A stretch of DNA of 57,407 nt, filler included, from Basidiobolus ranarum (Eukaryota): NCBI GenBank assembly GCA_040143965.1. It is 5 parts of 5 records of this genome, joined end to end, with 100 filler letters (N's around TTAATTAATTAA, not from the genome) between each part and the next. Parts side by side here need not be neighbours in the genome. Positions count along the whole stretch, not along the records: positions 46,023 to 57,407 come from JASJQH010000618.1; 4 more parts are not named here. One strand, given 5' to 3'. Shown here piece after piece: positions 3,538 through 54,600 of this stretch. Positions within the stretch are counted from its first letter, which is position 1; each line of letters opens with the position of its first letter. The notes beneath the pieces are model-generated. The model saw only the letters and a program-made list of their open reading frames with translations, did no database searches and was not told the DNA's origin. The translations under genes were made by a program, and so were the position numbers.

Positions 3538-6455
3538 TGGAAATTAGATAGGATTAATTTTACCACCAAGCAGGTACAGAGCTCCTTATATATGCTCCGC
3601 TGGTTTCAAGACGAACTGTAATTGATACGATGTTGTGAAGTTCCCTATTATAAGGCACAAGCATGTTTAGGATAAAAATACCAGCAAAATGATCTTCAGG
3701 TATCCATTGGTTGGGAGAATAAAACCTTTTGTACCGGTCACTTTTAACTGGTCCTCGAGATTAGTCGTTGGCGAGAAATGAGGGCTTTTGGCATTAGCAC
3801 CCACTTTGCGATGTTTGTTCCATCAGTAGGGGTGGCATTATTGGACTGTGCGATTGATTTGAATCAACAGCTGGATGCTTTACCGGTCTCAGTTAAATGG
3901 ACTTCACTACTGTTTGCTTAAATATTCCATAACTGTCGATGTTTTTATCCGATCACATTTGTCATCCGCTAGTGAAGTGAAATTACACTTATGAGGTGGC
4001 CCACTTAGGATCAGAAGACTTCGTGATTCTCCAGGGATTCATTTAGTCATCAGTTCATTTAATAAAGAGCAATGAAGCTAAATGGCAAATGCGTACATTA
4101 ACAAAGTCGTACTTGTGTTCCATCCGCGTTTCCACATTTTGTTGCTAAAATAATCAATTGATGAGCCCATATTTGGGTCAAGCTACGTAATCTCAGCAGC
4201 ATAAATGACTGGACATCAATGCACATATTGACGCGCTAATTCCCGTGCCTGGATAAGAATGAAATGAGACAGGGTGGTTGAGATTGTGGATGTGAGAGAT
4301 AATCAGTGGCCAGCAACGTGACGTCTGTTTTAGAACCTCATAGGAGACCGCTGAAAAAAACATGACGCGTCTCAGATTTAAATTCATGATTGTAGCCCCC
4401 TGTTTGGTACGAGGGAAACGTGTTGCAAAGGTATAACCACGGGGCATAGATGGCACAACTCAAGATCAATGACCCTCGGCTTGGGAGAGGTTCTTGGAAA
4501 GAAATAGGCCCTTTTGATGTCCCCAACCTTAGGTCAGGATGGCTTTACAACAATTGTGGAGACGAATGGCTTGGGACGGGGTCCTCTTTATTAGGCAATG
4601 ATTGTCCATTGTACGAGAACTAACTGTCACAACTAATTCTATTCACATCTGAACCGTTCTATTCTTAGGTCTCACTTGTAAGCGGCTGAATCTACTGGCT
4701 TACTTTGACCCTACTTAATTGTGTCACTTGATCTCACCAACACATCAATGCAATATGAACAGTACTAGAAGTCGAAATATAGTGTATACCAGGTCATTTT
4801 TACTTGAAGTTGGATTGATTTGCAAAATATTTCTTTAGTAATGAGCCCTCCACTCTAGAATATTCGAAATTCATCAAACCTTATCGCTTTTCATGTCATA
4901 CCCAATATCAAATAGCAAGCGACATAAAAAAATGAAAACAGGAGTTCCATAACTTTTACATACCTTTATCTGCACTAGAATATTGTCTTTGTTAATGAGT
5001 TTCTGCAATGTGTGAAGCTGTACGCTATTCACTCTGCCCTCAAGAAGAGCCAAAGGGTATATTCCCCTGATATATGGCGTAATATAACCACGAAGTTGTA
5101 CATCGTAAAAGTGGGGTTAATAAACAGCCATTCAGTATTCATATGTGCAGACCCGTAGTGTTTGAGTGTAGCTCGTATTAATCTTTTCGAACGAATTCTA
5201 TTAATTAGGTGTGTCATACCTGTGCTTGGTACAGAAACATTGACAATACTTTTGTTCCAAAGCTACTCGAGGCAGGACGGTTATGTGATCACAGTACTGC
5301 TTTTAATGTCGAGAGTGTAACAACAGGATTAGCAGTGGTTTGCCCAATCATCGACAGAGAACGTCGCTAGGAGAGCAAGTAAGATCCATTATATAGTCAA
5401 TCTAAGTCAAATCCCAACTTATGGACTAGCCTACTGGTTGATCTATAGCAAGGCTTCTGAAGCACTTGGATGGATTCTTGCATTGCACACCTATTAGAAA
5501 GTAAGCCATGATACCCGGAAAGGATCTCGGAGTAAATTCTTGGCCAGTCAGTGCTTATATTTAATATTGTGAATGTCCAACTCAAGCGTCGTCAACGGTG
5601 CTCGGCTGAGTCTCACAGTATATATAATTTGTTCGTAACGAAAGAATCTTAACAGGTTTAAGGTCATGTGTACTGATCAACTCCTGATAAATCTGACGCT
5701 GAGGGAATTATCAGGATTCACAAGTATTCATTTAATGAGATGAAGGCGTGAGCTCAATACATTCAGTAATATCGAATGGCTGGGTTGTGCTGCGCCAGTA
5801 GATTGATTTTACAAATAGATATGCATGAAATATCATCTGGCCGAGATTTTCATTCCACTGTCCAATATAGCCTTGCAAGGTCGCTGAAACCGGTTAGATT
5901 TTGTGGATCGCGAAGGTTCAATAGGGTAGTATCGGAGCGTACACAAAGCGGAGTTATTAGATTTATACGTTGTTGGATTCGAGTACTCTAATGGGAATAG
6001 CAATGGTCAAGTGAGAGTGTCCAAGGCTATCTATTTCTCAGGGTAATGAAGTTTACACGCAGAGAGGTTGCACGAGTCAAATCACCACTTTTTCATAGAC
6101 CTCTCATGGATAAGAGTGCCATCATCCAGGTCCATAAGGAAGGAAAGTGCTTTCTTTATGCGAGTTCCCAGCTATCACTTATTGCTGGACCCATATATCC
6201 GAAATCTAGCCATCATGTAGTACTAGTAGATGGACTGTTTGTAGTACTACAAAAACATAAATTCAACTTTGCATTCCTCGTCGATGATCATGTTACCGTA
6301 GATTATGGCAATTACGCGATGGTGTAAAGATTCTGAACTTGAGCATATATCCTATGGTCCTTTACCAGAAATGTAAATATATATAAGAGCGTTTTGAGGC
6401 TCATACTCAAACATTAATTCAGTTTTCTCTTCTCTCTCAGCCAGTCTGTTGAAAA

Positions 6456-11417: not shown

Positions 11418-11517
11418 NNNNNNNNNNNNNNNNNNNNNNNNNNNNNNNNNNNNNNNNNNNNTTAATTAATTAANNNNNNNNNNNNNNNNNNNNNNNNNNN
11501 NNNNNNNNNNNNNNNNN
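11418..11517. other. Artificial contig-join spacer (N44-TTAATTAATTAA-N44)
   Basis: Directly visible; the linker has stops in all six frames. Confidence 0.98.
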
Positions 11518-22929: not shown

Positions 22930-23029
22930 NNNNNNNNNNNNNNNNNNNNNNNNNNNNNNNNNNNNNNNNNNNNTTAATTAATTAANNNNNNNNNNNNNNN
23001 NNNNNNNNNNNNNNNNNNNNNNNNNNNNN
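22930..23029. other. Artificial contig-join spacer
   Basis: N run with TTAATTAATTAA. Confidence 0.98.
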
Positions 23030-34429: not shown

Positions 34430-34529
34430 NNNNNNNNNNNNNNNNNNNNNNNNNNNNNNNNNNNNNNNNNNNNTTAATTAATTAANNNNNNNNNNNNNNN
34501 NNNNNNNNNNNNNNNNNNNNNNNNNNNNN
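34430..34529. other. Artificial contig-join spacer
   Basis: N run with TTAATTAATTAA. Confidence 0.98.
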
Positions 34530-45922: not shown

Positions 45923-46022
45923 NNNNNNNNNNNNNNNNNNNNNNNNNNNNNNNNNNNNNNNNNNNNTTAATTAATTAANNNNNNNNNNNNNNNNNNNNNN
46001 NNNNNNNNNNNNNNNNNNNNNN
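45923..46022. other. Artificial contig-join spacer
   Basis: N run with TTAATTAATTAA. Confidence 0.98.
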
Positions 46023-46670: not shown

Positions 46671-47675
46671 ATGACTACCATATCAACCAGCAAAAACACT
46701 TCACCGCCACTTTCAGCCCTTCAACTTCAGAAGATTCGAATATCAAAAACCGTTTCGGAGATTACCAAGGGCTTCAAGTTAGCATATGAAGGAATCATTA
46801 GCTCCTTTCGAAATCCACAACTTCGAATCTGGTTCTTGTGGTCTTTCTTGATCCTTTCTGGCTTTCTAGTTATTGTTTATATTCTTACTCATTATCTAAT
46901 ACTGCTCCCTTTAAAAATCTTACAATGGAGTAATTTTTTACTTAGTTATATATCTCATCATGACTATAATAGTATAGATTTGGCACTCAGTAAGATAATA
47001 GTTAGCGTAAAAGGTGCCATAGCTGCCACACCATTTGTTGGTTTACTGTTCGTTCGATATCTGTATCCCAAACCCCTTGACAAAGTATTTATGACCTCGT
47101 TGAAGACTTCTTCTGACATTTACTTTTTGCAATTATCCCAGTTTCCTTATCATGTTGATTATTGGAAGGAAATGAAACGATATTTTGCTCGTACTATTCG
47201 TCGACTGAGGTTATTACTGACTGTTTACATATTATCGTCGATTCCAGTCTTAGGTGTTTGGGTGACACCTTTGGCGTCCGCTTGGTTGACTTCAAGAGCT
47301 TTGGGCAAACCTCTGGCGTACACTTTGGCTTTAGCTTCATTCCTATTTCCTAGCTTTAAACCGTATAGTGTTTACACTCTGAGCTATTTCTATGGATGTA
47401 GGGCGCTAGCTTGGGAACTTCTGGAGCCTTACTTCTGTAGAGTGGTGGTAACCAATTCCGAAAGATATCAATGGTTTTTACCTAATCAAATCATCACTCT
47501 GTCTTTTTCTATCATATTCTATTCACTCATGTATATTCCCTATATTGGACCATGCTTTTTTATCTTAGGTCAAGCAGCTGTACCCACTCTGTTAATATAT
47601 CTTTCTGATTCACCTGGCACCCCCTTCATTAAAAAGGATGATGCAAAATCAGCAATGAATGTAAAGAATAAATAA
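46671..47675 (+). CDS. Multi-pass membrane protein (UsgS/EI24-like)
   Basis: 334-aa intronless ORF with several TM segments; LD..FM.SL, ELLEPYF.R and IPYIGP motifs; family assignment from recall only. Confidence 0.65.
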   Translation: MTTISTSKNTSPPLSALQLQKIRISKTVSEITKGFKLAYEGIISSFRNPQLRIWFLWSFLILSGFLVIVYILTHYLILLPLKILQWSNFLLSYISHHDYNSIDLALSKIIVSVKGAIAATPFVGLLFVRYLYPKPLDKVFMTSLKTSSDIYFLQLSQFPYHVDYWKEMKRYFARTIRRLRLLLTVYILSSIPVLGVWVTPLASAWLTSRALGKPLAYTLALASFLFPSFKPYSVYTLSYFYGCRALAWELLEPYFCRVVVTNSERYQWFLPNQIITLSFSIIFYSLMYIPYIGPCFFILGQAAVPTLLIYLSDSPGTPFIKKDDAKSAMNVKNK

Positions 47676-47883
47676 GCTTTTTCATTGTGCAATCAATATA
47701 TTGGAATGATTGTTTACTCAGTAATCTCGTTAGACAGTTCATATATTGAATATGAAATAGTGAATCTATAAGCAACGTTAGTGATGTGACTGCTATGCTA
47801 TTTTTGGCTAAATGGGCATTTTGCTTATCACGACTCTTGGTAAGTTATTTAAGGCAAGTAGTTAGAATCGGTATGATGAAACC

Positions 47884-48030
47884 TTCAATGAAGTAATTTT
47901 TGAGTAATTACGTATCTCATCATGACTATAATAGTATAGATAGATACTCTAAAGCTACTTTTATAGATGCAAGGCGCTAGCTTGGGAACTTCTGGAGGCT
48001 TACTGCTATAGAGTGGAGTCAACTACCCAG
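47884..48030 (+). pseudogene. 5' piece of a tandem duplicate pseudogene of the 46671-47675 gene
   Basis: 47884-47941 matches ~46919-46979 (TCTCATCATGACTATAATAGTATAGAT); 47946-48020 matches ~47375-47450 (GGCGCTAGCTTGGGAACTTCTGGAG). Confidence 0.85.
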
Positions 48031-48384
48031 TCGCAGTGACAAAACTACACAAGGTGTACTTCTTTTGGATCCGCAAGGACAAGGATTTGTTTGAATGGTT
48101 CTTCCCTGGTTTAATTTTGTCGTTTGATTTCTCACCAGTAAATTTGTCAGACTCAGGACTAACCATCTTTCTTCTCACACTCACACTCTTGTGTAGAAAA
48201 CTTTCAAAATAAATGTCAGCGGAAGTCAGGGTATCCTGACCGCTGCGAAGATTTTTTTATAGTTTGTTGAATATTGAAAAGAAAGAAAGGAAAAAATCAT
48301 ATAGAAGAGCGAAGGGTGGTTGTTGTGGTGAGTGAGAGGGGTTAGTAGCCTTCTTCTCAGAAAGATATCTCGAGAGATTTCTAT

Positions 48385-48795
48385 CTATTTCTCCACGATA
48401 CTAAGTTTCTCCTCAATCGCCTCTCCTTTGTTGCGATCTTTGAAATATGAGAAATACCAGAACGCTGATTCCGCAGTGGCGGCAGCTACAAGCACAGTCA
48501 CAATCGCTACGCGTTGGTGTTTGTGATTCTTCCACAGTGTTAACAACACGTTCTCTTCGGTTTCGGGGGCAGCGGCGTTGGCGTTCGTATTGGGAGGGGG
48601 ACGGGTAGAAGAGGTAGTTGAGGACGATGAGTGAGGAGCCGCTGCTACTCCTTCGCCTTTTCCTGTTCCTTTGACGGAGGCGTTGGTGGCTTTGGATGAT
48701 GAGGAGGAGAGAGTGGCCATGGACCTCTGACGGACAGTGGATGTTGCAGTTCGAGCAATGAGCGAAGGCAAAGTGCAATTCAAAAGAGAAGTCAT
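48385..48795 (-). CDS. Small single-pass membrane protein with predicted mitochondrial presequence
   Basis: 136-aa intact ORF; Arg/Ser/Thr-rich N-terminus (ARTATSTVRQRSMATL), low-complexity linker, one TM (VAIVTVLVAAATAESAFWYF). Confidence 0.55.
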   Translation of the reverse strand: MTSLLNCTLPSLIARTATSTVRQRSMATLSSSSSKATNASVKGTGKGEGVAAAPHSSSSTTSSTRPPPNTNANAAAPETEENVLLTLWKNHKHQRVAIVTVLVAAATAESAFWYFSYFKDRNKGEAIEEKLSIVEK

Positions 48796-50084
48796 GATTT
48801 GGTTTGTTTGTTACTTGAGGAGTGGTGATTGTTTATAAAAAAATAGAACATCCTTGTCTGCATCTTTAAATACGGTGCACAAATTCCAGATCACGTTTTT
48901 TTACGCCGATTTTCGGAAAGGGGAGGGGTAGCAGGTTAAATCCGCAGGCTTTTTGCGTTACTTAGCATTTTCCACAGTTCACCTTTATAGAAAATTGCCT
49001 TTCCTGATAACCATGAACCATAATAGCATTAGTGCCTTCTCAGATGTAACGCAAATCACACATAAGCACCATAAATAAACTTTATTCTTATTGTCCACTG
49101 TGTCCATCCGTTCAAGAGACTCAAGCCCAAGGGCTCTCAACCCTTGTTCCACGACTCGCGTCGCAGCTCACAAGAGCAACCACCTGGCCTTGACGATCCA
49201 TCCCTTTCACCCTCAGCACTCAATTCGCCTGGCCTATCTGCGCTGGTACGTTGAATAAGACATCAATAGGTGATGGTCTAGGGATTCGGTCAATCCCGGT
49301 AAAATATCGGGTCATTCTGCGAGAACGAGAGCCAAATTGAACGATTCTTGGTATTGCTCTAAGTTCGAAAGATCAGCCTTGGGGTTCAATCGTATGCACT
49401 TTCGTTCAATTTTAAGTTGTTGTTTTTTTCGAATGGAAGGGGAAAGGGTACATGTGTCGTCCTAGGTTAGACATCCTCCATAGATAAACCAGTAAAAACA
49501 CGCATCTCTATAAATCAAGAGTTTGCTACTCCTCTGCTTACTCATGAAGTCTCGAAAGGACATACCGCGGGAATACACCCGAGTAACCCTTGTTATCCCG
49601 GGTCCTGCTCGAATTAACATTTGACTTCTTAACCCGCTCGCCTTCACAGCATGACCACCACTAACGCAGATCGGTTTAACATCTGAGACATCCTCAATAG
49701 TTCAGACTCATCCAGACCACACATCCCATCATCTTCATCGTCGTTTTCGTCATACTCACCGCCGCGTCGGTTGTCAGCTACCACCTGTCTCATCTTAACA
49801 TTCGCGTACTCTACAAGACCACCTATATGACCACCACCGCCGAGGCCGCTATCAGTCAGGAGTGACGGGTCCTTTGGCAGATCAACTCCAGCAGCCGACT
49901 CACAATACACCAACTCAACGGAATCGGCTCAGGACGACGATGCTGACCAAGGTCATGGTTTTACTCGAATCTGCCATCACTCGTTTCTTCCTCTCTGGAT
50001 CTTCGGCCATCAAAAATGATCCAAAAAGAAAGAGAAAAAGACGTCTTAAATGCGTGGACTAAATTAATAAATGCAGAGATCGTC

Positions 50085-50905
50085 TCATAAGAAAAAAGTA
50101 AAAAAAGAGTTTACTGCTAAGTGAACTTGAATATTCATACTTCCTCTATCCACAACAACAACCAAAGCGTGATTGACAGCAAAGTTCGTTACATTGGTAA
50201 CACCAGGGAGACTAGTGGAGCCACTGCTACCTCCAGCTACAGTACCTCCATTCCGAGCAAGAGCCTGCTGTTGCCGGCCAAGAGATGCACCAGAAAGAAA
50301 TACAGCTCCACGACGACGTGCTACTCCAGAAACAGTAATTTCCGCTTTGCTTCGGAGAGAGTAAATACAATCTGGATTATCCTTGAGGAAGTTGAACTTG
50401 ATCCCCGCTACCTTCTTCGTGTACTCGCGCTTCATATCCGCCGTCTTGTTAGCTCATTTCTGTCTAAATCGCCCGAAAGATCTCGCTCACTGTGAGTTTG
50501 GCAATGTCAAGTAACAACTTGTGATGTATCTCCTGGTTGAGAATCAGATACGAGTTCATCGGACATCTGAGACGGTTGGGATCCAATCCAATGGTGGCAA
50601 GAAAATTATAGTGGTGTATTCGGAAACTTGAAAGAGAGAAAAAGAAATCCATCGTTTTAGGTCAGCTACTTGCTCAACTCGCTACATGACGATCCACTAA
50701 TATCAGACGAATACGAGCACAGGAGAAAAGAAACCTACGTCATGTTCACTCTTGTATTTCTTGGAGGGTCCAGCATCGACATCATTGGGTCCGCACTTCC
50801 TAAAGGAGCGACGAGTATATACGTAATTGGGATGTTTCACCTGGAAAGTATCCCTGATATCCTTTGCGCGAAAGGTACAAAGCGATTTACGCTCTTAGAG
50901 ACTCA
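50085..50905 (-). pseudogene. Decayed multi-HMG-box transcription factor
   Basis: FVPFAQRI(fs)DTFQVKHPNYVYTRR (end of one HMG box), then DPNRLRCPMNSYLILNQE..KLL..LTVSEIFRAI*..KREYTKK..IKFNFLKDNPDCIYSLRSKAE (second box), with stops and frameshifts. Confidence 0.7.
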
Positions 50906-50911
50906 TAAAAA

Positions 50912-51456
50912 CAAGATATCAATGTTTTTCACCGAATTACATTATCACTGTCCTTTTCTAACATATTTCATTCACTCATGTATATTCCTTATATTGGTTC
51001 ATGGTTTATTATCCAAGGTCAAACAACTGTACCCACTCTGTTAATATATCTTTCTGATTCCCTTAGCACTCCATTAAAAAGGGTGATGCAAAATCAAGAA
51101 TAAGCGTAAAGAGTAAATAAGCTTCTTTTATTGTGCAATCGATATACTGAGATGATTGTTTACTCAGCAATCTTATCAAGTCCATCATATATTGAATAAA
51201 AAAAAGTGAATCGATAAACAACGTTAGTAGTGTGACTGCTATACTTTGATTGGTTAAATGGGCTTTTTGCCAAAAAAAGTGTTGGCTATAGAGTACAGCA
51301 GGTTTGGTGAGTAGCATCGATGTTATATAGGCAGTTTGCGCCCTGATAATGTGATTTTTTGCAATGGCTTACACTGGAGAGGATAAGAAATTTTGATATC
51401 AGTTACAATCTTGATTGAACTTTGATATCTTATCACGATTCTTAGTAAGTTATTTA
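50912..51456 (+). pseudogene. 3' piece of the duplicate pseudogene plus copied downstream flank
   Basis: Matches ~47461-47850 (AAGATATCAATG.., CACTCATGTATATTCC, CTGTACCCACTCTGTTAATATATCTTTCTGATTC, CTTATCACGA.TCTT.GTAAGTTATTTA). Confidence 0.88.
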
Positions 51457-51608
51457 GAGTACGTATCATTGTGTATCATTAAACCACTCAAGCTTTATCT
51501 TTTTTTTTGAGACAAAGTACTACTCAAGTATTCACCAAAGTCTCGGTTTATTTGATATTTAAAAAGCGTACCTTTTACATAAATAATTCAATAACCAAGT
51601 CGAAGTGA

Positions 51609-54600
51609 ATGAGTACTTGGAACGATGTTCGACAAGAAGTTAGGGCTTTTAGAGCCTCAATTTCCCCACCTTGTCTATGCATCATGAAAGATTTCGTGTT
51701 TGATGACGCGAATAATACTTTATTATTTATTGGTACCGATCCAACGAAACATTTCCAAACCACCTCTTTATTCGTTGTGGATCTACCACCTGAACCTATG
51801 CAAACCATATCTACCGAACCAGATCAACCCAATTCTGACTCAGGTAAAGGGGGGGGGGTTCTTGAACATAGGAAGATTTCACATATTCTCTAACCAAGGT
51901 TTCTTTTAAACTTTAGTGGTTCCTATAATCGATTGGAAGCCACTACTAACAGAAGCTTGGATGCGGGATAAACCGTTGGAAAATTTATCCAAAGCGGAAA
52001 TCCTTCATAAAGAGAGACAAAGACTCGCACTAGAGGGTATTACCTCGTTTTCTTTCGAGCCAAAGACCCGTCGTATCATGTTCCCCTATTCCAATAATAT
52101 ATACGTCGCAACGGTGGGCTTGGTTAGTATATGAGCGTTCCTATCTTTTACAAAATTAATTATTCAGTGGAGTTCTTATTGATTATTAAAGTAACTCTAA
52201 TCAACGTTTTTTGATACATAGGATAAAGGCTGTCAACCTTTGCAAGTAAAATCGGATATCAGTAAAGGCCCCAGATTAGATCCTAAGCTTGGTGGTCGTC
52301 GTCACGACCTCATTGCTTTTGTCAGAGACCGAGACCTTTGGATATCTACCCTCGATGGTGAAGAGATACAATTAACATATTGTAGTCAAAGTGATGATAC
52401 TACCATATCTTGTGGCATGCCAGAATTCATTATACAAGTAAGATAGTTTTCGATAACGTGTAGAGATTTCACCAGATAGCAAGTGGATCCAAATTAAATT
52501 GGGGTTTCTTAAAGGAAGAATTCGAAAGATATACTGGTTACTTCTGGGCACCCGAGGCTACCAAGTGTAAGGACAATCTGGAGCGGATTTTGTACTTACA
52601 GGTAAGTGAATCAATGGTTAGCACAATCTGTATGCTTCACGGAGCCGATGTGGAGGCTCATCGGTACCCTCGTTGTGGTAAGGGCTTTTCTCTCCATGGA
52701 TTTTAATCTTGGCTGAAGTAGCTCACATCTAGTTTTATCTAGGAACTGAGAATGCTATGTGTGATATGCAAATAGTGGAGTTCTCTTCACCTAGCGATAA
52801 ATCGGTAGGTACCACAGTGATGTTCCAGTTACGATTTATAAATATATTGACTTTTCTTGAGGGTAAATAGGGAGGTCAATGCTCTATAATTCATAAGCGT
52901 TTATGGGGCTCAGCTACCCTCAAGGAGATGTTCCCTTGGATGGAATACGTAGTTCGCTTCGGTTGGATTCCCAATGGAAAGGCGTAAGTTGAAATCAAAT
53001 AGATCTCTTCGACAATCAAATCATTTAACAATCATGGTTGAACAGTGTTTGGGCTCAGCTGATGGATCGCAAACAACAGAAAACTGTAGTAGTCAAAATC
53101 CCACTAAAGAATTTCGCCACCATGTATGAATACAATGGCAACCCTAATTACGAACAGTGTAAAGATAACGTGGAGATTTTGTATCATGAGGAATCCGAAA
53201 GTTGGATCAATGTATGTAGACCTCTAAACGATGTAACTTCAGTTCGGGTTATTGATATTATCGTAGTATTGCTTCATCTATCATTTCATAGAAACACAAA
53301 ATGAAGATTTCACCGAATTCATTTGGTGTAGCGAACGAACTGGTTACCGACATCTTTACCTGGTTCGGAAATTCAAATCATCCCAATGGTTCCTTAAGCC
53401 ACTTACAGTTGGTGAGTGGGTTGTTGCTGATGTACCCATCTGGATAGATACCGTTAGAAAGCTGGTCTATTTTGTTGGGAAACGAGATACACCTTTAGAA
53501 AATCATTTGTATGTTGCTTCCATGGCTGAGGATGCTGACCCTGACAACATTGTTAGATTAACTCCCTTGGGATTTTTCCACAACATCCAAATGAATCCTT
53601 CATGTACTCGCTTTGTATCCTGGTACTCGAACATTAAGGAAGCACCAAGCACCGCAATATACGAGCTATACTGGGAGGACGGGTCTATCTTTCCAAAAAC
53701 GACACTATCTGCACACGTTCATCCCCTTGGTGTGGTTGATAAGAGCCTTCCAGTTGGTGAATTCTTTTCCTTCGAAAACAAGCAAGGTTCGTTCAATGTT
53801 GTATTGGTTTCTCTAGTTGATGCTGATGATGTAGCGATCTTCTCAAGGTGATACCATCTATGGATGTTTCTATAAGCCGGATAACTACGTTCAGGGCAAA
53901 AAGTATCCTACCGTTCTGTATGTATATGGTGGACCTAAAGGACAGGTATAGTGGTTCGATTACACAATTCCCCCGATCTCCTTATCCTAACATCTTGTAG
54001 GCTGTTACAAATGACTATAAATGCCCACGGTTTCTTCCGATGTTCCTAGCCATCCGAATGGGCTTTGCGGTAGTGATGATTGATGGGCGTGGATCTTCTG
54101 ACAGAGGTCTTGCTTTTGAATCACAAATTCGATGGAAGTTGGGTACTGTTGAGTTAGAAGATCAGGCTGGTGGTATCAAATATTTACTAGAGCATAGACA
54201 ACACGACCTTGGCGGAGTTATAGACAAAAACAAGGTTGCCATTACTGGGTGGTCATATGGTAATATCCAATAGTCATGGCTTAACCCTAACATCTGCGCG
54301 GGAGTACTAAAACAACTTGTTTATGTAGGTGGATACATCTCCTTACTTGCTTTGGCTCATTATCCCGATATCTTCAAGATTTCCATTCCTGGAGCACCCG
54401 TTACCCACTGGAAATTATACGACACCGCATATTCTGAGCGATACATGGGACTGCTAGAGGAGAATGCGGAAGGCTATCGTAAGGCGTCTGTTCTCAGCTA
54501 CATCGACAAATTCCCAGATGAGTAAGTACCTGTTCCCTTGGAATGAGCAGAAATGTGAGTAGAAAGCAAAACTAACATCCATTCTAGTGAACATCGACTG

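Follow-up and report, generated by a model that had tools for sequence, protein, structure and literature searches.

The window analysed here, a stretch of 57,407 nucleotides, consists entirely of five contigs of about 11.4 kb each, separated by N44-TTAATTAATTAA-N44 linkers, and the whole insertion locus is contained in the fifth contig (46023-57407). On the plus strand of this contig, an ORF call identified an intact gene (46671-47675) for a 334-aa multi-pass membrane protein. This protein shares 72% of its residues with a protein of B. ranarum (E 2e-149) and 66% with its counterpart in B. meristosporus; identity to the nearest Mucoromycota relatives, from Umbelopsis, is 34-36%. The relatives carry the source labels EI24-domain or UsgS. 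When compared with the Pfam EI24 profile (PF07264, EI24 / CysZ-like), the protein gave no match at E<=0.1, and its B. ranarum relative scored 30.4 bits, under the 32-bit cut-off. Since the name comes from the labels of relatives and the profile cut-off was not reached, the gene is called only EI24-like. Judging by these similarities, the genes flanking the insert look Basidiobolus-like and the host looks like a Basidiobolus-like fungus.

The 3' two-thirds of the EI24-like gene, together with 185 bp of its 3' flank (46915-47860, plus strand), was found by blastn to be duplicated in tandem (repeat families D1-D8). The copy is partial and decayed, begins 18 bp past the end of the parent unit and is composed of two arms on the plus strand. 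In the left arm (47879-48023), positions 47879-47941 correspond to parent 46915-46979 and positions 47953-48023 to parent 47382-47452, with 89% and 84.5% identity in the alignment, respectively (by blastn, 86% for 46915-46979 against 47879-47941, E 8e-14, and 87.5% for 47382-47445 against 47953-48016, E 5e-17). Between these two pieces, the copy lacks some 390-400 bp of the parent, from 46980 to about 47370-47381. In the right arm (50913-51465), which is 85% identical to the parent, positions 50913-51270 correspond to parent 47462-47824 (blastn, 82% over 367 nt, E 1e-100) and positions 51429-51465 to parent 47824-47860 (blastn, 93% for 47824-47851 against 51429-51456). The former coding part carries deletions of 2 and 4 nt, and an additional 158 bp (51271-51428) has no counterpart in the parent unit. 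Beyond the right arm, a dipeptidyl-peptidase-like gene begins near 51609. The comparison of copy and parent gave in total 449 matches, 76 mismatches and 7 gap events, and the indels are small. A RIP-like bias between the two was considered and rejected, as 32 GC>AT differences are balanced by 31 AT>GC differences.

By alignment, the arms of the copy are separated at 48023|48024 (parent 47452) and 50912|50913 (parent 47462). The sequence between these junctions is an insert of 2,889 bp (48024-50912), which stands in place of nine parent bases (47453-47461); nine target bases were lost and none was duplicated. In the assembled contig, both flanks of the insert are copies of the adjoining Basidiobolus-like gene. 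The only repeat at the junctions is the trinucleotide AAC, present at both. Neither direct nor inverted repeats of more than 9 nt connect the ends of the insert, no TSD or TIR was found, and the ends bear no poly(A)/T run. No transposase and no Pfam family was found at E<=0.1 across the 13 ORFs of the insert; Pfam searches of 15 ORFs of the region returned nothing relevant, and tRNA and Rfam scans of the insert were empty. No further copy of the insert is present within the 57-kb window. Short inverted matches between the left part of the insert and the parent gene (I2, I4 and I5; 21-22 nt, 81-86%) are not colinear, went undetected in blastn at E<=0.01 and were dismissed as chance.

The insert is a compositional outlier. 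With a GC content of 0.449 and a CpG o/e of 0.92, it is the extreme of the window for both measures, and none of the 381 other 2.88-kb windows drawn from the five contigs reached either value (maxima, 0.429 for GC and 0.82 for CpG o/e). Because the CpG o/e of three Mortierellaceae-like contigs described below (L001-L003) is only 0.66-0.72, the CpG richness of the insert is not itself a donor signature. The leftmost 360 bp (48024-48384) have a host-like composition (GC 0.387).

These results bear on several claims of an earlier, sequence-only reading of the window. The pseudogene copy interrupted by an insert with a known empty site is upheld, its junctions being refined from ~48030 and ~50911 to the positions given above. 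The description of the copy as following its parent up to ~47450 and resuming at ~47461 holds with corrections: the copy is partial and tandem, with a large deletion, extra sequence and small indels. The reported lack of TIR, TSD and transposase agrees with the negative end-repeat and Pfam searches, and the reported excess of GC and CpG over the flanks with the control windows.

The insert contains two recognisable genes, both on the minus strand. One is an intact ORF of 136 aa (ORF136; 48385-48795), as called in the earlier reading. Its N-terminus resembles a presequence, its middle is of low complexity, and a single hydrophobic helix lies at the C-terminal end. A protein search gave two matches among 203 candidates, from Mortierella sp. 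GBA35 and Linnemannia elongata. Identity to the Mortierella sp. protein is 54-61%; ORF136 is 61% identical to the relative P0001, which is less similar (47%) to the L. elongata protein. The family is very small: an exhaustive HMMER search returned only 10 of 1.84 billion representatives at E<=1e-3, and a metagenome scan with the ORF136 alignment gave 198 pattern matches, of which 0 were confirmed. In the phylogeny that had been suggested as a check, ORF136 groups with named Mortierellaceae rows in a clade with 100/99 support, the forks inside the clade being left open; the tree is unrooted and contains few taxa, and the placement comes from the named rows, seven more distant rows having no names. 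No relative of ORF136 was found on L001, which stops 535 bp beyond its HMG gene, and a weak match of P0001 in L005 (E 0.003) was discarded, as it lies in a low-complexity stretch of an unrelated ORF. The openness of ORF136 was examined as a sign of selection and discarded: the HMG fragment described below has 2 disabling lesions in 570 aligned nt, and at that rate 1.4 lesions are expected in 408 nt and the probability of observing none is ~0.24. That the frame is still open is compatible with chance. As a lead only, the ESM Atlas search with ORF136 peaked at 0.83, and small mitochondrial membrane subunits scored 0.78-0.79.

The other gene is a 5'-truncated HMG-box pseudogene (50211-50894), delimited by tblastn against P0008, a protein of 356 aa from Linnemannia gamsii with three HMG_box stretches (E 1.4e-38). 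The pseudogene aligns to residues 24-225 of P0008 in three segments of 79% (38/48), 72% (34/47) and 61% (58/95) identity (E 4e-40), and contains the tail of box 1, a linker, an intron-like stretch, the whole of box 2 and a lineage-specific linker. In a protein search with its open 63-aa piece, P0008 was the only word-sharing relative that scored. Box 1 tail, linker, box 2 and post-box linker are colinear with those of P0008 and of three metagenomic relatives (L001-L003), at 61-79% identity for protein and 70-80% for DNA. Unlike P0008, the window copy is missing the N-terminus and most of box 1, and its frame is both shifted and stopped; the third box was recovered neither by sensitive tblastn nor by blastn. 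When the gene was read through as a single query, 14 stop codons were met. Its separate ORF pieces gave no Pfam HMG box (PF00505) at E<=0.1, and PDB searches with three pieces gave at best SOX-2, at an E of only 0.73. The multi-HMG-box gene described earlier as 5'-truncated, decayed and cut at the right junction is in this way borne out by the P0008 alignment and the two lesions.

The relationship of the pseudogene to its relatives was followed at the DNA level. L002 is the nearest, with 79.7% identity over 256 nt, followed by L001 (73.7%) and L003 (69.9%); two further sequences (L004 and L005) are distant HMG relatives. A linker outside the boxes, '...RRRGAV.LSGASL..QQQALARNGG', is common to the pseudogene and P0008 and is missing in the more distant L001. 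For box 2 (247 sites), the window sequence is 79.8% identical to L002, as near as the three relatives are to one another (76-81%), and its difference from L002 at third codon positions (36%) is smaller than that between L002 and L001 (42%). This closeness in DNA and at third positions is incompatible with vertical descent across phyla. The intron-like stretch (GTAGGT...CAAG; 50627-50738, minus strand), whose borders are approximate and do not preserve frame continuity as drawn, coincides in position with introns of L001 and L003; L002 lacks it. Since it is kept at that position, the captured DNA would be genomic and not cDNA.

Two disabling lesions were located in box 2 (50454-50470, minus strand) by DNA alignment with the three open-frame relatives: a 1-nt insertion, which lengthens the T run at 50466-50468 by one base, and a TGG>TGA change at a conserved Trp codon (50454-50456). 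At sites invariant among the relatives, 25 window-specific changes were counted, with 6, 8 and 11 at codon positions 1, 2 and 3. The lineage-specific changes are AT-biased (16 GC>AT vs 3 AT>GC). Among the 142 invariant first- and second-position sites, 14 were altered, or about 10% of formerly constrained sites; the excess of changes at these positions is suggestive only (Fisher p=0.125). The HMG gene is a pseudogene that has undergone AT-biased decay.

Between the two genes, the middle of the insert (48796-50210, ~1.4 kb) gave no homologue in Pfam, PDB or L001-L005. Presumably it stems from DNA between the donor's genes and from the 3' portion of the HMG gene, now decayed. As the third HMG box is absent and this ~1.4 kb has no homologue, the insert could also be of patchwork origin. 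A 94-aa ORF in this part (49644-49928, minus strand) was evaluated as a VWA protein after ESM Atlas comparisons with VWA-domain clusters (0.80-0.84), and was rejected since Pfam (E<=10) and PDB were unsupportive.

Taken by similarity, both recognisable genes of the insert are of Mortierellaceae affinity: their only or closest database relatives come from three Mortierellaceae species. In word-indexed searches of a protein collection that includes B. ranarum and B. meristosporus proteins and the contig's own EI24-like protein (P0003), no Basidiobolus protein was among the matches to either gene, and no paralogue from the window's genome was returned. The insert looks like nuclear DNA of the Mortierella family and appears to be a physical trace of inter-phylum transfer. 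The sequence-only reading had proposed captured genomic DNA from another fungus, in the style of Mortierellaceae, and with both genes Mortierellaceae-like and the neighbouring gene Basidiobolus-like this proposal is sustained. We consider it likely that ~2.9 kb of Mortierellaceae nuclear DNA was end-joined at a break in a Basidiobolus-like tandem gene copy and has since decayed.

The donor would be a fungus of the Mortierellaceae whose HMG gene was nearest to Linnemannia gamsii-like sequences. The cargo of the fragment, as predicted from the alignments, would comprise the 3' portion of a gene with three HMG boxes, intervening DNA and a small gene for a 136-aa membrane protein with its downstream flank. 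The landing site may have been a break inside the tandem copy of the membrane-protein gene, already non-functional at that time; we infer that the pseudogene predates the insertion. Integration probably occurred by end joining rather than by transposition, with 9 target bases lost and a junctional repeat of at most 3 nt, and one end of the fragment would fall within an HMG box. Afterwards, the insert would have decayed under the AT-biased mutation pressure of the host, leaving the HMG gene dead. Since the paralogous copy provides the pre-insertion sequence to the exact base, the mode of integration, a putative end joining with a 9-bp loss, is directly readable.

The earlier reading had left a choice between break repair and a cargo-carrying element; break repair is favoured, and the element loses ground for want of terminal repeats, target duplication and transposase. 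The right end of the insert lies within HMG box 1 or its intron, and sequence of the donor gene or intron continues to ~5-18 nt from the junction, which leaves no room for an element terminus. Capture of the genes by a Helitron, a Pack-type element or another cargo carrier, followed by insertion at this site, could draw on the leftmost 360 bp, which have no gene assignment and a host-like GC. Such elements move gene fragments, some of them without target duplication. The insert nevertheless has no TIR or end-linking direct repeat above 9 nt, no Pfam family in its ORFs, no second copy in the window and a target deletion where a duplication might be sought, and with donor sequence so near the right junction we regard this explanation as highly improbable. 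Neither a DNA transposon nor a Helitron is recognisable from termini, TSD, transposase or a second copy in the window. A processed (retro-)pseudogene is at odds with the retained intron-like stretch, with the presence of two genes and intergenic DNA, and with the lack of a poly(A)/T run.

The cell's own DNA often serves as filler in break repair, and the break could have been filled from a host locus, either an earlier acquisition from Mortierellaceae or, with lower probability, a pair of native genes. The local rearrangements (the tandem duplication, the ~390-400-bp deletion and the extra 158 bp) fit such a secondary copy, against which stands the lack of a paralogue from the window's genome in protein searches of a collection containing the contig's own EI24-like protein. 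A native pair is contradicted by the lack of Basidiobolus relatives in these searches and by the composition of the insert, and whatever the immediate source, the DNA and third-position similarity to a Linnemannia-like sequence still demands a Mortierellaceae origin. We hold an intragenomic copy to be unlikely, and direct transfer from the foreign fungus to be the probable course. Mortierellaceae are frequent soil and culture contaminants and the assembly is fragmented, with contigs of ~11 kb, so that a chimera of contaminant DNA and a Basidiobolus contig has to be weighed. It would require two independent misjoins 9 bp apart in parent coordinates within the same pseudogene, at insert ends that share no repeats able to mislead an assembler. 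Moreover, the HMG gene is cut, frameshifted, stopped and AT-biased, with changes spread uniformly over codon positions, and such decay in place, unexpected in the gene of a living contaminant, argues against contamination. An assembly artefact is for these reasons quite improbable.

End joining captures stray DNA at double-strand breaks, as in NUMT/NUPT-type insertions and the organellar or retroelement filler of yeast. The insertion by putative end joining of Mortierellaceae DNA resembles NUMT-type capture in its lack of TSD and terminal repeats, in the few target bases lost and the <=3 nt of junctional homology, and in its arbitrary fragment ends, which slice through a gene. It differs in that the inserted DNA would be nuclear DNA of a fungus of another phylum, and not organellar or retroelement DNA of the cell itself.

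In yeast genomes, horizontally transferred genes have been described within conserved syntenic regions (PMC2715888); as in those cases, the foreign DNA lies among ordinary host genes and its insertion point is definable. In contrast to them, the present locus has a paralogous copy that shows the empty site at single-base precision, and a putative donor that is a fungus; in place of a functional metabolic gene, its cargo is a truncated pseudogene with a small ORF. Transfers from bacteria to Basidiobolus were reported by Tabima et al. 2020 (PMC7466969), where candidates showed no GC difference from neighbouring genes. The recipient lineage and the mixture of foreign and fungal genes on one scaffold are shared with the present locus, whereas its donor would be fungal and its segment is a compositional outlier. 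A further set of 19 fungi-to-fungi events, deduced from the trees of genes that were kept, has served as time constraints (PMC12592215); the present transfer would likewise span distant fungal groups, but it concerns a fragment in decay, both of whose junctions can be seen.

In the portions seen of PMC7466969, PMC10079182 and PMC12592215 (the last without its supplementary HGT list), as elsewhere in the literature consulted, no published transfer from Mortierellaceae to Basidiobolus was found. Fungus-to-fungus transfer is mostly inferred from conflicting trees of surviving genes, and both junctions, an empty site, a truncated cargo and later decay are seldom seen together. Whether Basidiobolus belongs near Mucoromycota or Zoopagomycota is described as an open problem (PMC12592215), and its genome as containing 'redundant genes from various sources', with genes in common with Mucoromycota (PMC10079182). 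A single dead fragment accounts for neither this placement nor the mixed gene content. A more speculative proposal is that the Basidiobolus lineage repeatedly takes up and end-joins nuclear DNA from Mucoromycota-grade fungi living alongside it, here Mortierellaceae, this locus being the first junction-resolved trace, which would partly explain its 'rogue' placement, now with Mucoromycota and now with Zoopagomycota, with ORF136 perhaps a working import; we think this unlikely. The locus would nonetheless imply that Mortierellaceae DNA is able to reach and enter a Basidiobolus-like germline, and it offers a signature that can be screened genome-wide, namely segments rich in GC and CpG that carry Mortierellaceae-like genes.

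The 57,407-base window is made up of five pieces of 11,385-11,417 bp, separated by four N44-TTAATTAATTAA-N44 linkers (11418-11517, 22930-23029, 34430-34529 and 45923-46022). These linkers mark the joins between contigs and no feature is readable across them; a 'palindrome' (I1) in the repeat listing was the linker itself and was rejected as a feature. In the protein collection, the window's own 334-aa protein is assigned to a contig of exactly 11,385 bp; the pieces are therefore complete contigs from a fragmented assembly. The whole finding is contained in the fifth contig (46023-57407), whose remaining ORFs we take, from names assigned by eye, to be ordinary fungal housekeeping-type genes. 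When the 334-aa protein encoded by the intact parent gene (46671-47675, plus strand) was used in a protein search, 5 matches were obtained among 3,341 candidates, the window's own protein counted in. Proteins of Basidiobolus ranarum (72% identity, E 2e-149) and B. meristosporus (66% identity) were followed by Umbelopsis proteins, with 34-36% identity only. The source labels on these relatives were EI24-domain or UsgS. As Pfam gave no EI24 match for the window protein and the score of the B. ranarum relative was slightly under the Pfam cut-off, the gene is called 'EI24-like' only.

Comparison of the parent region with the window by blastn revealed four colinear matches, in which parent 46915-46979, 47382-47445, 47462-47824 and 47824-47851 corresponded to copy 47879-47941, 47953-48016, 50913-51270 (82%, E 1e-100) and 51429-51456, respectively; the same blocks were recovered in a separate repeat listing. 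Since the copy starts 18 bp past the end of the parent unit, it was concluded that part of the gene region, about 946 bp, had been duplicated in tandem. The 5'-most third of the gene is absent from the copy, about 390-400 bp of internal parent sequence (46980 to about 47381) is missing and deletions of 2 nt and 4 nt are present in the former coding part; the tandem copy is a pseudogene. About 11 poorly aligned nucleotides occupy the deletion point (47942-47952). The copy also contains an extra 158 bp (51271-51428), which has neither a parental counterpart nor a further match within the window and may have been added as filler in a different repair event. Over 525 aligned sites, 449 matches, 76 mismatches and 7 gap events were counted between parent and copy (JC distance 0.16), and the differences showed no AT bias (32 vs 31).

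In the alignment, the left arm of the copy stops at 48023 (parent 47452) and the right arm begins at 50913 (parent 47462). As the arms abut these two parent positions, the intervening 48024-50912 (2,889 bases) is an insertion, with nine parent bases missing. The sequence-only reading had placed an insertion precisely inside a duplicated pseudogene, and both the blastn blocks and the alignment bore this out, with sharper coordinates. Its statement that no TIR, TSD or transposase was visible also held: the site had lost 9 bp and showed no duplication, terminal structure or transposase. The trinucleotide AAC was the sole repeat at both junctions, and no direct or inverted repeat of more than 9 nt linking the ends of the insert was found.

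The intact 136-aa ORF noticed earlier in the insert was confirmed at 48385-48795 on the minus strand (ORF136). Of 203 candidates in a word-indexed search, two proved to be relatives, both hypothetical proteins: one comes from Mortierella sp. GBA35 (54% identity by BLASTP and 58-61% when aligned), the other from Linnemannia elongata (42-47% identity). The two species belong to the Mortierellaceae. An exhaustive HMMER search of 1.84 billion representatives with a three-sequence profile returned only 10 proteins at E<=1e-3. In the maximum-likelihood tree, for which all 12 rows were kept and none dropped, ORF136 grouped with Mortierellaceae proteins, as the phylogeny proposed earlier was meant to check: a five-member clade (100/99 support) included the two named proteins and two other proteins, and the remaining seven rows formed a separate clade. 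The branching order within the five-member clade is left open by the tree; identity was higher between ORF136 and the Mortierella sp. protein (61%) than between the latter and the L. elongata protein (47%), and the ORF136 branch (0.43) was twice as long as its neighbour's (0.21). No Pfam family was found for ORF136, the ESM Atlas gave leads only, all below 0.85, and a metagenome scan with ORF136 found nothing. At the rate of the neighbouring pseudogene, about 1.4 lesions would be expected in ORF136, with P(0) about 0.24, and its intactness is therefore not significant.

The separate ORF pieces of the HMG-box gene were not recognized by Pfam, and none was convincing in PDB. The 63-aa piece adjoining the right junction, for which only 2 word-sharing candidates existed in 5.8 billion, matched one protein (79% identity, E 9e-19), a 356-aa 'high mobility group box domain-containing protein' from a Linnemannia gamsii MAG, with three HMG_box stretches. 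By tblastn with this protein, the gene was followed on the minus strand from 50894 down to about 50211, residues 24-71 matching at 79%, 94-140 at 72% and 134-225 at 61%, the last two segments in different frames with stops included; the non-box linkers were also similar. The match ended after residue 225. Thus, of the 5'-truncated, decayed multi-HMG-box gene cut at the right junction that had been described, the truncation and the decay stood and the match to a three-box protein agreed with the rest, except that the third box was not found in the window.

When metagenomes were scanned with the L. gamsii protein, five loci were obtained, the close relatives being L001, L002 and L003. L002, in which 3 of the 82 residues of box 2 differ from the L. 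gamsii protein as counted from translations, is treated as Linnemannia cf. gamsii DNA. L001 ends 535 bp past its HMG gene and holds no ORF136 relative. At the DNA level, identity of the insert to L002 was 79.7% across 256 nt and 75% across 89 nt; to L001 it was 73.7% (278 nt) and to L003 69.9% (249 nt). Over 247 aligned sites of box 2, the window and L002 were 79.8% identical, and the three relatives 76.1-81.4% among themselves; third codon positions differed at 36% between the window and L002, less than between L002 and L001 (42%) or L003 (51%). Vertical descent from before the separation of two fungal phyla could not leave a gene within the synonymous-site diversity of a single family; Basidiobolus is assigned to the Basidiobolomycota by NCBI taxonomy. 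The host gene next door, used as internal control, showed 34-36% protein identity to its nearest Mucoromycota relatives. The earlier suggestion of captured genomic DNA recalling Mortierellaceae is supported, as both genes have their relatives in this family and the box-2 DNA falls inside its diversity.

The greater GC and CpG richness of the insert relative to its flanks was confirmed by a sliding window. The insert had a GC of 0.449 and a CpG o/e of 0.92, values that 0/381 controls reached in either measure (maxima 0.429 and 0.82); the controls were windows of the insert's length taken in 100-bp steps over the rest of the five contigs, for which per-contig GC was 0.377-0.410 and CpG o/e 0.58-0.77. 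The excess was patchy, the left 360 bp (48031-48384) being host-like (GC 0.387). As the CpG o/e of L001-L003 was 0.66-0.72, a high CpG content does not mark the donor. In all five contigs, host DNA was depleted of CpG (381 windows, mean o/e 0.65), a pattern suggestive of methylated cytosines or a comparable mutational bias; the insert still stands at 0.92 after roughly 10% neutral divergence.

Lying between the first two boxes, about 112 nt of intron-like sequence (50738-50627, minus strand, GTAGGT...CAAG) occupy the position of introns in L001 and L003; L002 has no intron there. The reading frame is broken across its borders as drawn, which could be due to one more lesion or to a wrongly placed border. 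Before the right junction, only about 18 nt are left upstream of residue 24; these align either to L002 coding sequence or to the 3' end of an intron in L001 and L003, and under either alignment the right end of the fragment falls within the donor gene's box 1. Read along the minus strand, the insert consists of a gene truncated at its 5' end, roughly 1.4 kb of unassigned DNA, a second, complete small gene and the 360 bp downstream of it. A piece sheared at random from a compact fungal genome would have this appearance; the insert is not a cDNA or a transposon. In the unassigned middle (48796-50210), GC rises locally to 0.52, open frames are of 50-94 aa and no homologue was detectable; a VWA domain for 49644-49928(-), indicated by weak atlas leads, had no support from Pfam or PDB and was rejected. 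No tRNA or known RNA family was found in the insert.

The four-way DNA alignment of the window with L001-L003 showed a 1-nt insertion in the window HMG gene (extra T at 50466-50468) and a TGG>TGA change at a conserved tryptophan codon of box 2 (50454-50456); the frame was open at both sites in all three relatives. At sites where the relatives agree, 25 changes were private to the window (6/8/11 by codon position 1/2/3), against 0/2/5, 3/2/8 and 4/3/13 for the private changes of the relatives, a contrast that is suggestive only (Fisher p=0.125). Sixteen private window changes were GC>AT and three AT>GC. The HMG gene is dead and has decayed with AT bias. Among first- and second-position sites otherwise invariant, 14/142 (9.9%) were changed in the window, a figure that can be taken as a rough ceiling for the neutral divergence accumulated after constraint was lost. 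This value is comparable in order to the parent-copy distance of 0.16, and the insertion is therefore old, either simultaneous with the tandem duplication or later.

We consider it likely that foreign Mortierellaceae DNA was captured here by end joining. Cells patch double-strand breaks with any available DNA, and a fragment would have been ligated into such a break by non-homologous or micro-homology-mediated end joining. The tandem duplication, the internal deletion and the 158-bp filler fit a site that is prone to breaks or has been repaired more than once; that the surrounding patchwork is a by-product of the same messy integration is conjecture. Break repair and a cargo-carrying element had both been put forward earlier; the former is favoured, and against the latter stands the lack of terminal structure, duplication or transposase. 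Transposon capture in general is scarcely credible, each defining feature that was testable having failed. A chimeric assembly, which is very improbable, requires that two misjoins fell within 9 bp of each other in parent coordinates, and it leaves a truncated, frameshifted, AT-decayed foreign gene unexplained. It is also unlikely that the insert is a secondary copy from another locus of the host, and such a copy would merely shift the foreign arrival to another place. A native Basidiobolus origin of the insert is contradicted by the third-position data, by the insert composition and by three protein searches in which the insert genes had no Basidiobolus relatives.

Mortierellaceae and Basidiobolus both inhabit soil, litter and dung, and end-joining capture of stray DNA is a textbook process. 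The present insertion belongs with known kinds, horizontal gene transfer (HGT) and end-joining capture, and its value lies in an inter-phylum fungal insertion viewed at base level. No report of transfer from Mortierellaceae to Basidiobolus was found in literature searches. Published studies describe the habitats of Basidiobolus (PMC10079182), bacterial HGT amounting to 2-5% of its genes (PMC7466969), fungi-to-fungi HGT as accepted and used even for dating (PMC12592215), HGT insertions in syntenic yeast regions (PMC2715888) and the mixed phylogenetic signal of the Basidiobolus lineage as an acknowledged problem (PMC10079182, PMC12592215).

The deposited L. gamsii protein begins in the middle of HMG box 1 (residues 1-23), and annotation of the 5' end is probably wrong or incomplete. 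Among the relatives of the Linnemannia HMG gene, L001 (about 4240-4345) and L003 (about 480-575) have, besides the intron that separates boxes 1 and 2, another just before residue 24; both introns are absent from L002 and the L. gamsii protein, a presence/absence polymorphism of introns within the family.
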